From Escherichia phage p000v: a stretch of 64,000 nucleotides of DNA. Under the pieces are notes generated by a model that was not told the DNA's origin, did not search any database, and saw only the letters and a program-made list of their open reading frames with translations. The first letter of the stretch is position 1, and each line of letters begins with the position of its first letter. Shown in pieces: positions 7,279 to 11,561 of the stretch. Both the position numbers and the translations under genes were made by a program. The stretch lies in sequence record NC_055781.1. One strand, 5' to 3'.

Positions 7279-7752
7279 ATGTTATTATCTGGCAAATTAT
7301 ACAAAGAAGAAAAACAAAAATTTTATGATGCACAGAACGGTAAGTGTCCTATTTGCCACCGTGAATTAGACCCTGATGTTCAAGGTAACCATCTTGACCA
7401 CGACCACGAGTTAAACGGGCCAAAAGCCGGTAGAGTTCGTGGATTACTCTGTAATCTGTGCAACGCAGCAGAAGGCCAAATGAAGCATAAGTTCAACCGT
7501 TCTGGTCTTAAAGGTCAAAACGTTGATTACCTCGAATGGCTTGAAGCTCTTCTTGCTTATTTGAAACAAGATTATTCTGATAATAATATCCATCCTAATT
7601 TTGTTCCAGACAAAACTAAAGAGTTCTCAAGACTAGGTAAAGAGGAAATGATGGCTGAGATGCTTCAAAGAGGATTTGAATATAATGAATCTGATACTAA
7701 AACACAATTAATAGCTTCATTCAAAAAGCAGCTTAGAAAGAGTTTAAAATGA
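7279..7752 (+). CDS. 49: endonuclease VII (Holliday junction resolvase)
   Basis: 157 aa; near-identical to recalled T4 gp49 (MLL.GKLYKEEKQKFYDAQNGKC.IC..EL.PDVQ.NHLDHDHELNGPKAG). Confidence 0.9.
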   Translation: MLLSGKLYKEEKQKFYDAQNGKCPICHRELDPDVQGNHLDHDHELNGPKAGRVRGLLCNLCNAAEGQMKHKFNRSGLKGQNVDYLEWLEALLAYLKQDYSDNNIHPNFVPDKTKEFSRLGKEEMMAEMLQRGFEYNESDTKTQLIASFKKQLRKSLK

Positions 7753-9566
7753 AAATTGAAAAAGAAATTGAAGGATTAATTTATAAAACTAATAAAGATC
7801 TTTTGAACGAGAATGCTAATAAAGATTCTCGTGTTTTTCCAACTCAACGGGACCTTATGGCTGGTATTGTGTCTAAGCACATTGCCAAAAATATGGTCCC
7901 GTCTTTTATTATGAATGCGCATGAAAGTGGAATTATCCACATGCATGATATTGATTATTCTCCTGCTCTTCCGTTTACTAATTGTTGTTTAGTCGATTTA
8001 AAGGGGATGCTTGAGAACGGATTTAAATTAGGCAATGCTCAAATTGAAACGCCTAAATCGATTGGTGTTGCTACTGCAATTATGGCACAAATTACTGCAC
8101 AAGTTGCTTCACATCAGTATGGCGGAACTACATTTGCAAATGTCGATAAAGTTCTTTCTCCTTATGTTAAACGTACATACGCTAAACATGTTGAAGATGC
8201 AGAAAAATGGCAAATCGCTGATGCGTTGAATTATGCTCAATCTAAAACAGAAAAAGACGTATACGATGCATTCCAAGCTTATGAATATGAAGTAAATACT
8301 CTCTTTAGTTCAAACGGACAAACGCCTTTTGTAACAATTACATTTGGTACGGGAACCGATTGGACTGAACGAATGATTCAGAAGGCAATTCTGAAAAATC
8401 GGATTAAAGGTCTTGGTCGTGATGGGATAACTCCTATTTTTCCTAAACTTGTTATGTTTGTTGAAGAAGGTGTTAATCTTTATAAAGATGATCCAAACTA
8501 TGATATTAAACAACTTGCGTTAGAATGTGCAAGCAAAAGAATGTATCCTGACATTATTTCGGTTAAGAATAATAAAGCTATTACCGGTTCTTCAGTTCCT
8601 GTTTCTCCAATGGGTTGCCGTAGTTTCTTGAGCGTATGGAAAGATTCAACTGGAAATGAAATTCTTGACGGTCGTAATAATCTCGGTGTTGTAACACTGA
8701 ATCTTCCTCGCATCGCATTAGATTCTTATATTGGAACACAGTTCAATGAACAGAAATTTGTTGAATTATTCAATGAACGAATGGATTTATGTTTTGAAGC
8801 TTTGATGTGTAGAATTAGTTCCTTAAAAGGAGTTAAAGCGACTGTTGCTCCTATTCTTTACCAAGAAGGTGCATTCGGGGTTCGTCTTAAACCTGATGAC
8901 GATATAATTGAGTTATTTAAAAACGGTAGAAGTTCAGTGTCTTTAGGATACATCGGTATTCATGAATTGAATATTCTTGTTGGTCGTGATATTGGACAAG
9001 AAATTTTAACTAAAATGAATGCTCATCTTAAACAGTGGACTGAAAGAACTGGTTTTGCTTTTAGTTTGTATTCTACTCCTGCTGAAAACCTTTGTTATCG
9101 CTTCTGTAAACTCGATACAGAAAAATATGGAAGTGTAAAAGATGTTACCGATAAAGGCTGGTACACTAACAGTTTCCACGTTTCAGTAGAAGAAAATATT
9201 ACTCCGTTTGAAAAGATTTCTCGTGAAGCGCCATATCATTTCATTGCGACAGGTGGTCACATTTCTTATGTTGAACTTCCAGATATGAAAAACAATTTAA
9301 AGGGACTTGAGGCCGTCTGGGATTATGCTGCACAACATTTAGATTATTTTGGTGTTAATATGCCAGTGGATAAATGTTTTACATGTGGAAGTACCCATGA
9401 AATGACTCCTACTGAAAACGGATTTGTTTGTTCAGTTTGCGGAGAAACTGATCCTAAAAAGATGAACACCATAAGAAGAACATGCGGTTATTTGGGAAAT
9501 CCGAACGAACGCGGATTTAATCTCGGTAAAAATAAAGAAATCATGCATAGGGTTAAACACCAATGA
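7749..9566 (+). CDS. nrdD: anaerobic ribonucleoside-triphosphate reductase NrdD
   Basis: 605 aa; C-terminal glycyl-radical motif RRTCGYLG and Cys cluster; uninterrupted reading frame. Confidence 0.92.
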   Translation: MKIEKEIEGLIYKTNKDLLNENANKDSRVFPTQRDLMAGIVSKHIAKNMVPSFIMNAHESGIIHMHDIDYSPALPFTNCCLVDLKGMLENGFKLGNAQIETPKSIGVATAIMAQITAQVASHQYGGTTFANVDKVLSPYVKRTYAKHVEDAEKWQIADALNYAQSKTEKDVYDAFQAYEYEVNTLFSSNGQTPFVTITFGTGTDWTERMIQKAILKNRIKGLGRDGITPIFPKLVMFVEEGVNLYKDDPNYDIKQLALECASKRMYPDIISVKNNKAITGSSVPVSPMGCRSFLSVWKDSTGNEILDGRNNLGVVTLNLPRIALDSYIGTQFNEQKFVELFNERMDLCFEALMCRISSLKGVKATVAPILYQEGAFGVRLKPDDDIIELFKNGRSSVSLGYIGIHELNILVGRDIGQEILTKMNAHLKQWTERTGFAFSLYSTPAENLCYRFCKLDTEKYGSVKDVTDKGWYTNSFHVSVEENITPFEKISREAPYHFIATGGHISYVELPDMKNNLKGLEAVWDYAAQHLDYFGVNMPVDKCFTCGSTHEMTPTENGFVCSVCGETDPKKMNTIRRTCGYLGNPNERGFNLGKNKEIMHRVKHQ

Positions 9567-10033
9567 ATTATGATAGATTTTATCCTTGCGATTTTGTGAA
9601 TGGCCCGGGATGCAGGGTCGTTCTTTTCGTTACGGGTTGTTTGCATAAATGCGAAGGGTGTTATAATAAATCAACATGGAATGCTAGAAATGGTATTCCA
9701 TTCACTGGTGAAACACTAGAACAATTAATTGAATGTTTGAATAATGATTATATAGAAGGATTAACTATAACCGGAGGTGACCCTCTCTATCCTGATAACC
9801 GAGATGTTATTCATTGCATTGCTCAAACAGTAAAAAATCTTTATCCCAATAAAAGCATTTGGTTGTGGACAGGATATAAGTTTGAAGATATTAAACAACT
9901 AGAAATGCTTAAATATGTTGATGTTATTATTGATGGGAAGTATGAGAAAAATCTTCCGACTAAAAAGCTGTGGCGAGGATCAGATAATCAGCGACTTTGG
10001 TCAAATACCGATGGGGTGTGGAAACATGATTAA
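9563..10033 (+). CDS. nrdG: anaerobic RNR activating enzyme NrdG (radical SAM)
   Basis: 156 aa; CLHKCEGCYN radical-SAM-type Cys motif; coupled to nrdD (ATGA overlap). Confidence 0.9.
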   Translation: MNYDRFYPCDFVNGPGCRVVLFVTGCLHKCEGCYNKSTWNARNGIPFTGETLEQLIECLNNDYIEGLTITGGDPLYPDNRDVIHCIAQTVKNLYPNKSIWLWTGYKFEDIKQLEMLKYVDVIIDGKYEKNLPTKKLWRGSDNQRLWSNTDGVWKHD

Positions 10034-10143
10034 ATTGAATTACATTATGGATACTATAAATGATATGATTTTTCGTTTTGGTCCAGAATTTTATTCGCAA
10101 TATAGTTTAATGATTATCAATGCTTAGTTAATTAAGGGTAAAT

Positions 10144-10359
10144 ATGTACAAATTTCGTAAAGGTTTAGCTGATTTTCTTACAACTGTAACGTTCTTTTTG
10201 TTTATGGCAGTTGGAGCTATTTTTCTTATTCCTTTTACTGGTGTATTTTTCGTGATTAGTTTAATTTCTCCAGAAAAGGGTTTATCCTCCAGCGAATTCA
10301 ATGAACGTTTGGACAAAATTACTAATAAACTGAATTCTGTTCTTGATAAAAAGGCTTAA
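10144..10359 (+). CDS. small membrane protein
   Basis: ORF track; hydrophobic core. Confidence 0.45.
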   Translation: MYKFRKGLADFLTTVTFFLFMAVGAIFLIPFTGVFFVISLISPEKGLSSSEFNERLDKITNKLNSVLDKKA

Positions 10360-10361
10360 TT

Positions 10362-10679
10362 ATGATTAGTTTTGAGCGGTATGTAGTAGAGAGTTGGAAT
10401 GGTTTTGATATGTTCGGTAATGACTATTATTTCTATGAATGTAGTCTGAACCCAAGCTTCTGGGCTGGACGTGAACAAGACCTCGAAGAAATCAACGCTC
10501 GTGCCGATTTGTTAGGTGAACTGCCTACGGTTTATTTTACCTTTGATGAATCCGGCTTCGTTATCCAGGTTTATTTTCCTGAAGAAAACTCTGGTGAGGA
10601 TTCTGTTAATCCTCCTTATTGGGCTTACCAAGGAATTATTTCTCGTGGAACAAAACTCGAACTTAAAGAACAAGATTGA
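10362..10679 (+). CDS. hypothetical protein
   Basis: ORF track 105 aa. Confidence 0.5.
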   Translation: MISFERYVVESWNGFDMFGNDYYFYECSLNPSFWAGREQDLEEINARADLLGELPTVYFTFDESGFVIQVYFPEENSGEDSVNPPYWAYQGIISRGTKLELKEQD

Positions 10680-10968
10680 AATTTATGGCATCCCTGAAGA
10701 AGTTGGACGTTGTCCAGGATGTTATACTGTTACAAAACTTTTAAAGGAGCTCAATGCTCCTTATACATTTTATAAAGTCCTCACTAATAATGGTAAGATT
10801 GAATATGACCGTCCTTTAATCGTATCTCTTGCTAAACGTGCAGGATTCACTTCACTTAATATTCGTTATCCTGTCATATTTTTAAATGATAAGAAACAAA
10901 AGAATATTGCAGAGTTTAAAAAGTCCTTGATTTCATTAGGATATGACTCTGATATCATAGAAGATTGA
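10645..10968 (+). CDS. glutaredoxin/NrdH-like redoxin (CPGC motif); start uncertain, GTG at 10645 proposed
   Basis: IEIYGIPEEVGRCPGCY thioredoxin-fold motif; no in-frame ATG near the domain start; GTG preceded by AGGA. Confidence 0.5.
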   Translation: MEQNSNLKNKIEIYGIPEEVGRCPGCYTVTKLLKELNAPYTFYKVLTNNGKIEYDRPLIVSLAKRAGFTSLNIRYPVIFLNDKKQKNIAEFKKSLISLGYDSDIIED

Positions 10969-10992
10969 CCAGGTGCCGCCTGGTCTTCTTTA
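10967..10992 (+). terminator. hairpin GACCAGG-UGCCG-CCUGGUC followed by T-rich run
   Basis: 7 bp stem overlapping stop codon of redoxin gene. Confidence 0.4.
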
Positions 10993-11133
10993 TCCCATTT
11001 CCAATATAATCTATTGGAATCTTCACTTCACTATCTCCTTGTGCCCCTCTCAAACCAAAAATATTTTCATAAAACAGTTTACATCCTCAATAGTTGTGTT
11101 AAGATTAAACCATCTACTATAGAGGAAAATAAA

Positions 11134-11316
11134 ATGACAATTGAAGATAAAGAAATTAAGGTTGACCAGTACTATTCTGTCAACGGTAATGCAGTACAGA
11201 TAACCAGAGTTTCAAGCCTGGATGTTTGGTACCGTTCAATCAAATATCCAGAAATTGGTGAAATGCTTTGTGACCGTGGTATCTTCTGTTCAATTGCAAA
11301 GGAAATTAAGCCATGA
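11134..11316 (+). CDS. hypothetical small protein
   Basis: Internal ATG with RBS AGAGGAAAA; upstream part of tracked ORF lacks RBS. Confidence 0.4.
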   Translation: MTIEDKEIKVDQYYSVNGNAVQITRVSSLDVWYRSIKYPEIGEMLCDRGIFCSIAKEIKP

Positions 11317-11561
11317 TTAGTTTAGACTCAAAGAAAGTTGTTCTAACCCTTAAAGTTAATGACGAGCGACTGGTATTCATTACCATTTCCGATTTACATG
11401 TTGAAATTGCTAATGGCGTCCGTACTTATCAAGCAAATAAAACTCATTGGGATTATATCCCGATGTTGACGCTTACTCAGCGTTTAGAATCAATCGGTCT
11501 TAAAGACCTTTCAGTAAGTGAAGTGAATTTTATCAAACGTGTCGTATCAATCAACCTCTGA
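11313..11561 (+). CDS. hypothetical protein
   Basis: ORF track; coupled start. Confidence 0.45.
   Translation: MISLDSKKVVLTLKVNDERLVFITISDLHVEIANGVRTYQANKTHWDYIPMLTLTQRLESIGLKDLSVSEVNFIKRVVSINL

Follow-up and report, generated by a model that had tools for sequence, protein, structure and literature searches.

Phage T4 carries an nrdH gene (T4p072, NP_049686.1, P07077; 102 aa), whose product was formerly described as 'uncharacterized 11.8 kDa protein in Gp55-nrdG intergenic region', and the GenBank record of T4 notes that nrdH 'has glutaredoxin activity'. The gene starts with GTG in the context aaggaatagttGTGaaacaaaat, the only GTG start among the 14 complete CDS of the T4 neighbourhood. In a proteome and transcriptome time course of T4, NrdH (P07077) was placed in the early RNA class and in the late protein class (PMC9697503, supplementary files 4 and 6). 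Because NrdH has a protein-level temporal class in that study, the GTG-initiated T4 gene is translated in vivo. A survey of phage RNRs and a review of post-transcriptional control in T4 are silent on the nrdH start, and no N-terminal protein data for NrdH of T4 or of the phage analysed here were found in the literature.

A second arrangement of the gene is known from RB51 and RB69. In RB51 (nrdH, YP_002854031.1, with RB51ncORF079c) and in RB69 (RB69ORF082c), an ORF of 103 to 105 aa overlaps a GTG-started nrdH of 107 aa. Two other redoxins are relevant for comparison. The glutaredoxin/'thioredoxin' NrdC of T4 (1ABA, 1AAZ) is the closest solved structure by sequence, and the name NrdH is shared with the class Ib protein of E. 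coli. Bacterial NrdH-redoxins are characterized by the motifs C(V/M)QC and WSGFRP.

The nrdH locus and its product

The window is the whole stretch of DNA analysed here, 64,000 nucleotides of Escherichia phage p000v (NC_055781.1). As judged from its closest matches with a taxonomy line, it belongs to Mosigvirus, in the T4-like Straboviridae. The features of the region are as follows.

7749-9566, + strand: nrdD, a single uninterrupted ORF of 605 aa
9563-10033, + strand: nrdG, with a 4-nt overlap with the nrdD stop (ATGA, 9563-9566)
10144-10359, + strand: 55.8, small membrane protein
10362-10679, + strand: 105-aa ORF (ORF105), RB69ORF082c-like, phrog_2749; stop TGA at 10677
10516-10644, + strand: upstream extension of the nrdH frame, holding ATG 10546; open, but non-coding in the nrdH frame
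10629-10670, + strand: 42-nt block with Shine-Dalgarno (SD) sequence, GTG and first 8 nrdH codons, invariant in 11 aligned sequences
10630-10634, + strand: putative SD sequence AAGGA of nrdH, with a 10-nt spacer to the GTG
10645-10968, + strand: nrdH, predicted T4-type glutaredoxin-like redoxin of 107 aa; GTG at 10645, CPGC at 10711-10722, stop TGA at 10966-10968
10967-10994, + strand: intrinsic terminator-like hairpin with T-rich tail (consensus scan)

The order nrdD, nrdG, 55.8, ORF105, nrdH, 55.6 on the + strand agrees with the annotated relatives PhAPEC2, LF82-41, T4 and RB51. In the consensus scan, the terminator-like hairpin lies directly 3' of the nrdH stop and consists of an 8-pair stem (10967-10985) followed by TTCTTTAT; a terminator is annotated at the equivalent site just after nrdH in the PhAPEC2 record, and the genes named 55.6-like come after the hairpin. 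The homing endonuclease gene mobC, which separates nrdG from nrdD in T4 (locus L004, 3947-5001), is missing from the window. A 33-aa ORF at 10026-10127 (+) overlaps the end of nrdG; the records of PhAPEC2, NicPhage and RB51 (RB32ORF074c-like) include it, and that of LF82-41 does not.

The redoxin domain lies in a + strand ORF spanning 10516-10968, with CPGC at 10711-10722 inside ...KIEIYGIPEEVGRCPGC... The product is 86% identical to the NrdH proteins of T4 and T2 over residues 8-107 (tblastn; matches in 1350 phage records), and annotated relatives name the ORF nrdH or glutaredoxin, with ORF105 labelled 'similar to RB69ORF082c'. It matched the 'thioredoxin domain' family PHROG 22 with E=1e-15, while the score against Pfam Glutaredoxin (PF00462) was 21.0 bits, just below the gathering cut-off of 22.9 (E=4e-4). 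The CxxC redox motif after the first beta-strand (KIEIYGIP...CPGC) is kept in all 30 sequences examined, with the variants CPAC, CYGC and CAGC in distant phages. The match to the T4 glutaredoxin 1ABA, a distant paralog of the window NrdH, was weak (E=0.01); the alignment spans most of the fold, from beta-1 through the CxxC, and pairs chain residue 3 with query residue 12, which fits an N-terminus close to beta-1. AlphaFold2 run from the single 107-aa sequence gave a poor model (mean pLDDT 47). By orthology, motif, synteny and start-site architecture, the redoxin ORF is assigned as the ortholog of T4 nrdH and as a member of the T4-type NrdH group, and a redox function (thiol-disulfide oxidoreductase) is predicted for its product.

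The protein shares with E. coli class Ib NrdH (TIGR02194) its gene name, the small size of a CxxC redoxin and the linkage to ribonucleotide reductase genes. However, the window nrdH adjoins the class III genes nrdDG, unlike the class Ib setting of bacterial NrdH, and the protein has CPGC and no WSGF. In NCBIfam it gave no match to the bacterial NrdH-redoxin model TIGR02194, and only a sub-threshold match to the YruB family was obtained (13.6 bits against a cut-off of 88.6). Judging from these sequence comparisons, the name nrdH is not to be taken as membership of the class Ib NrdH-redoxins.

Coding signal across the ORF105-nrdH junction

The nrdH frame is +1 relative to ORF105. It opens after a TAG at 10513 and contains five candidate starts: GTG 10516, TTG 10543, ATG 10546, GTG 10594 and GTG 10645. 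The last of these overlaps the final 35 nt of ORF105. The CPGC domain, its +1 frame, the GTG at 10645 after AGGA (10631-10634) and the 35-nt overlap had all been described in an earlier note on this DNA, and every coordinate was confirmed. The same note had held that the frame contains no ATG between the upstream stop and the domain; this was incorrect, since ATG 10546 is present, and some GenBank records annotate the gene from there.

Eleven distinct Mosigvirus and Tequatrovirus sequences, all with ORF105, were aligned across the junction, and no indels were seen among them. The 22 variable sites in 10362-10515 include 19 at codon position 3 of ORF105. In the putative extension (10516-10644), 15 of 19 variable sites are at ORF105 position 3; these sites correspond to position 2 in the nrdH frame, where a change always alters the amino acid. 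Over the whole of 10362-10644, ORF105 codon position 3 accounts for 34 of the 41 variable sites. The overlap (10645-10679) has a single variable site, 10671, and the remainder of nrdH (10680-10965) has 65, with 45 at position 3 of its own frame. The window differs from locus L009 by 12 nucleotides over 10545-10644; read in the nrdH frame, these differences change 12 of 33 residues, and read in the ORF105 frame, only 2 of 33. Since 15 of the 19 variable sites in 10516-10644 fall at nrdH position 2, only the 105-aa ORF is coding there, and by the same comparison the open frame in this interval is interpreted as a by-product of the overlapping ORF.

The block at 10629-10670, which straddles the extension and the overlap, contains no variable site. 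No other stretch free of variable sites is as long as these 42 nt (simulation P ~0.01-0.02), and the invariance is consistent with a combined constraint of dual coding and a ribosome binding site. From the periodicity on either side, the coding signal therefore passes from the frame of ORF105 to that of nrdH inside 10629-10670, and the one canonical start in this block is GTG 10645. The change at 10671, just outside the block, leaves the nrdH residue unaltered (AAC/AAT), but in ORF105 it replaces CAA with the stop TAA.

These data bear directly on a start at ATG 10546 (or GTG 10516), which would give an NrdH of 140 to 150 aa whose N-terminus is extended by a hydrophobic segment. In favour of it, ATG 10546 is present, and every Mosigvirus or Tequatrovirus sequence with ORF105, including the 11 of the alignment, has the frame open for 53 codons; PhAPEC2 and NicPhage are annotated in this way. 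However, an extension that evolves as non-coding sequence in its own frame, behind an ATG that has no SD sequence, makes this start very unlikely. The alignment also bears on a programmed +1 ribosomal frameshift, by which the 105-aa ORF would be fused to the redoxin domain. The two ORFs do overlap in the +1 frame with no stop between them in the nrdH frame, but the nrdH-frame coding signal is absent before 10629, and a prfB-like combination of a shifty codon and a stop with an SD 3 nt upstream was not seen by eye in the sequence of the region. Nor does an SD lie beside the ORF105 stop.

Two minus-strand ORFs of this region, 10356-10478 (annotated in NicPhage) and 10512-10673, were ruled out as genes, because the substitution periodicity follows the frame of the + strand ORF105. 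In the NicPhage record, a minus-strand ORF is called in place of the 105-aa gene.

The nrdH start in other phages

The start was compared in 30 sequences, comprising the window, 20 GenBank loci and 9 IMG/VR loci. The scan of IMG/VR gave only these 9 loci, and the diversity was taken from GenBank phage records. For each sequence, we recorded the open length of the nrdH frame 5' of the IEIYG strand and the canonical start codons within it.

T4 resembles the window in CPGC, in AAGGAAT before the GTG, in nrdD-nrdG-55.8 upstream and 55.6 downstream, and in the C-terminus. The start context of the window is aaggaattatttctcGTGgaacaaaac, and the longer junction sequences read ...agtaaggaatagttGTGaaacaaaataagattgaagtctatgga... 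in T4 and ...ccaaggaattatttctcGTGgaacaaaactcgaacttaaagaacaagattgaaatttatggc... in the window; on this comparison the two genes look homologous in their SD, GTG and first codons. Unlike the window, T4 has no 105-aa ORF, and its nrdH therefore begins 2 nt past the 55.8 stop with no gene overlap. The N-terminus is VKQNK in T4 and VEQNSNLKNK in the window, which has five extra codons. RB51 and RB69 have an SD-GTG block identical to that of the window. RB51 differs in the body of nrdH, which is of the Tequatrovirus type and 87% identical, and in its 29-nt overlap, which is shorter than the 35 nt of the window because the ORF105 stop (TAA) comes two codons earlier.

The GTG lies 5-10 codons before IEIYG in Tequatrovirus, Mosigvirus, Gaprivervirus, Dhakavirus and Kanagawavirus. 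It is preceded by CAAGGA(A/G) in the first four genera and by GAAGGTGG in Kanagawavirus, where an in-frame ATG 6 codons 5' of the GTG provides an alternative start. In T4, three T4-like IMG/VR contigs, GADS24, RZ, VR26 and SHP1, the open frame 5' of the domain offers no ATG, GTG or TTG other than this GTG. RZ and VR26 have an in-frame stop two codons 5' of the GTG, and in SHP1 the nrdH frame is open for 17 codons only. The putative extension from ATG 10546 is thus closed or shortened in these three phages; it is absent in T4 and GADS24 and is found in no ortholog outside the group that carries ORF105.

All more distant phages, namely Jiaodavirus, Slopekvirus, Pseudotevenvirus RB16, Citrobacter phage Ursula, a Proteus phage and an Acinetobacter phage, have an ATG 1-4 codons before the strand. 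With a GTG 5-10 codons or an ATG 1-4 codons before IEIYG, the N-terminus is therefore within about 10 residues of beta-1 in every lineage. The note had proposed that orthologs with a conventional ATG would indicate a local sequence error. Such orthologs do exist among the distant phages, but the reading as an error did not hold, and lineage-specific start usage accounts for the difference instead.

The frameshift fares poorly in the same comparison. T4, T2-type phages and the Mosigvirus GADS24 have no ORF105 and keep a GTG-started nrdH right after the 55.8 stop, and for this reason an obligatory fusion is excluded; the distant orthologs have an ATG of their own, and the ORF105 stop moves, so that the overlap varies from 20 to 35 nt. 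Together with the lack of a shift-prone motif, this leaves the frameshift suggested in the note only the slightest chance.

A sequencing or assembly error, by which an indel or a miscall would have destroyed a conventional ATG, had also been suggested, and the unusual start codon is all that speaks for it. The 1-kb region around the junction matched 655 phage records, the best being Escherichia phage LF82-41 (99.9%). The 71-nt ORF105-type junction is carried at >=90% identity (90-100%) by 411 independent phage records, and about 213 records carry the T4-type junction. Neither a local oddity nor an error of this genome agrees with these numbers, and the latter is excluded because about 411 phage records share the same junction. 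With the same GTG in five genera and no junction indels in the 11 aligned sequences, its probability is practically nil.

A near-cognate start closer to the domain, at ATT 10675 or 10681, was also considered, since these codons encode the Ile residues of KIEIYG in the nrdH frame. Neither is preceded by an SD (pairing -0.9 kcal/mol), and the Lys before IEIYG and the codons preceding it are conserved as coding sequence, with the change at 10671 silent in nrdH. In addition, the orthologs initiate upstream of this Ile, and in Ursula and RB16 the ATT position is Val (GTA or GTC), with an ATG two codons upstream. Initiation at either ATT is accordingly extremely unlikely.

The presence of ORF105 varies within a genus: Tequatrovirus RB51 has it and T4 does not, and among Mosigvirus the window has it and GADS24 does not. 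In the forms without ORF105 (T4, locus L004, 3614-3620; GADS24, locus L015, about 680-700), the C-terminus of 55.8 leads into the AAGGAAT-GTG block; the indel is thus bounded in such a way that the ribosome binding site of nrdH stays intact. GADS24 has this short, T4-like arrangement (caaggaataattGTGgaacacaacaag). The NrdH N-terminus of the forms without ORF105 is 5 residues shorter and lacks SNLKN.

One IMG/VR locus combines two types. In the metagenomic contig L007 (IMGVR_UViG_3300029310_000132; observation at 1-40), the NrdH body is 97% identical to that of the window, but the start context is Gaprivervirus-like (..ttcctGTGggccaaaac.., with VGQNL followed by IEIYG). Such a combination points to possible mosaic recombination at the junction; a short distance 5' of it the contig comes to its end.

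Ribosome binding site, upstream gene and annotation

SD pairing to the 3' end of 16S rRNA was computed on the 20 nt 5' of each candidate. GTG 10645 gave -5.4 kcal/mol, the best value among the in-frame candidates; the others ranged from -2.4 to +0.3 kcal/mol, and neighbouring genuine genes from -2.4 to -5.0 kcal/mol. The 10-nt spacer in the window is near the upper limit of usual spacer lengths; the T4 spacer is 6 nt.

The RNA at 10600-10700 was less structured than 197 of 200 shuffles (z = +1.97), as expected of an accessible initiation region. Folding of this segment gave only a weak hairpin, in which CCUCC (10612-10616) pairs with the nrdH SD. A structure that sequesters the SD was ruled out, as the region is less structured than shuffles and the variable sites 10610, 10613 and 10616 lie in or beside CCUCC. 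Because of these variable sites the pairing seems unconserved, and the anti-SD-like CCUCC is probably incidental. An Rfam scan of 9900-11400 at E<=1 gave no match, so the junction is without a known RNA element.

ORF105 itself is recognized as a real protein-coding gene by its conservation. It matched phrog_2749 with E=1e-49 and was found in 525 phage records (tblastn), with identity falling to 37-48% in Dhaka-, Gapriver- and Kanagawavirus. Invariant residues occur along its length, and its C-terminus carries the motif W-x-Y-(Q/E)-G-x-(I/V)-(S/T)-(R/C)-G. The nrdH SD is formed by the Tyr-Gln-Gly codons of this motif (TAC CAA GGA), and the GTG is contained in the (Arg/Cys)-Gly codons (CGT GGA or TGT GGG). 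The SD and the GTG are thus built into conserved ORF105 codons, and therefore the genes overlap. The length of the overlap is 35 nt in the window, 29 nt in RB51 and W143, 26 nt in CIP9, and 20 nt in Gaprivervirus and Dhakavirus; the ORF105 stop is TGA at 10677 in the window, whereas RB51 and W143 have TAA at the position corresponding to 10671.

Taken together, the redoxin ORF is very probably the T4 nrdH ortholog, translated independently from GTG 10645 as a 107-aa protein by means of the AAGGA SD within the upstream gene. The ribosome would bind this SD inside the 3' end of the 105-aa gene and would translate nrdH on its own from the GTG, and the longer frame back to 10516, including ATG 10546, would be an accidental out-of-frame reading of the upstream gene. 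The comparative data thus strongly support the GTG that the note had named as the nearest plausible initiator. We infer the actual N-terminus of NrdH from these alignments. Translation of nrdH may be coupled to that of ORF105, and minor initiation upstream of GTG 10645 is possible, given the open frame of 53 codons.

A further proposal is that the conserved GTG and SD are a selected device that sets expression. In this case nrdH would be produced at a low level, with its translation coupled to that of phrog_2749, whose protein would act as a functional partner within the anaerobic ribonucleotide reductase or redox module. The weak GTG start and its SD do lie in conserved codons of the upstream gene across five genera, and the GTG persists even where that gene has been lost, as in T4. 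We regard the proposal as unlikely.

GTG 10645 is the normal start of a T4-type nrdH, already annotated in T4 and RB51, and is not new. Biologically, the locus is an ordinary case of the compact, overlapping gene layout in T4-like phages, and no open question hangs on its GTG start. The practical value of the analysis is in correcting inconsistent nrdH annotations, for which the comparison across phages supports the GTG. At least four starts, giving products of 88 to 140 aa, are in use in the GenBank records of near-identical phages (inconsistent records: KF562341, OY726582, NC_010105 and NC_070778; loci L001, L003, L026 and L019), as listed below.

PhAPEC2 and NicPhage: ATG 10546, 43 codons before the domain; 140 aa
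Q7622: ATG 13 codons before the domain and 6 codons before the conserved GTG; 113 aa
LF82-41 and RB51: the conserved GTG, which is also annotated in CIP9; 107 aa
JS98: internal ATG (MRCPGC...); 88 aa, without strand beta-1
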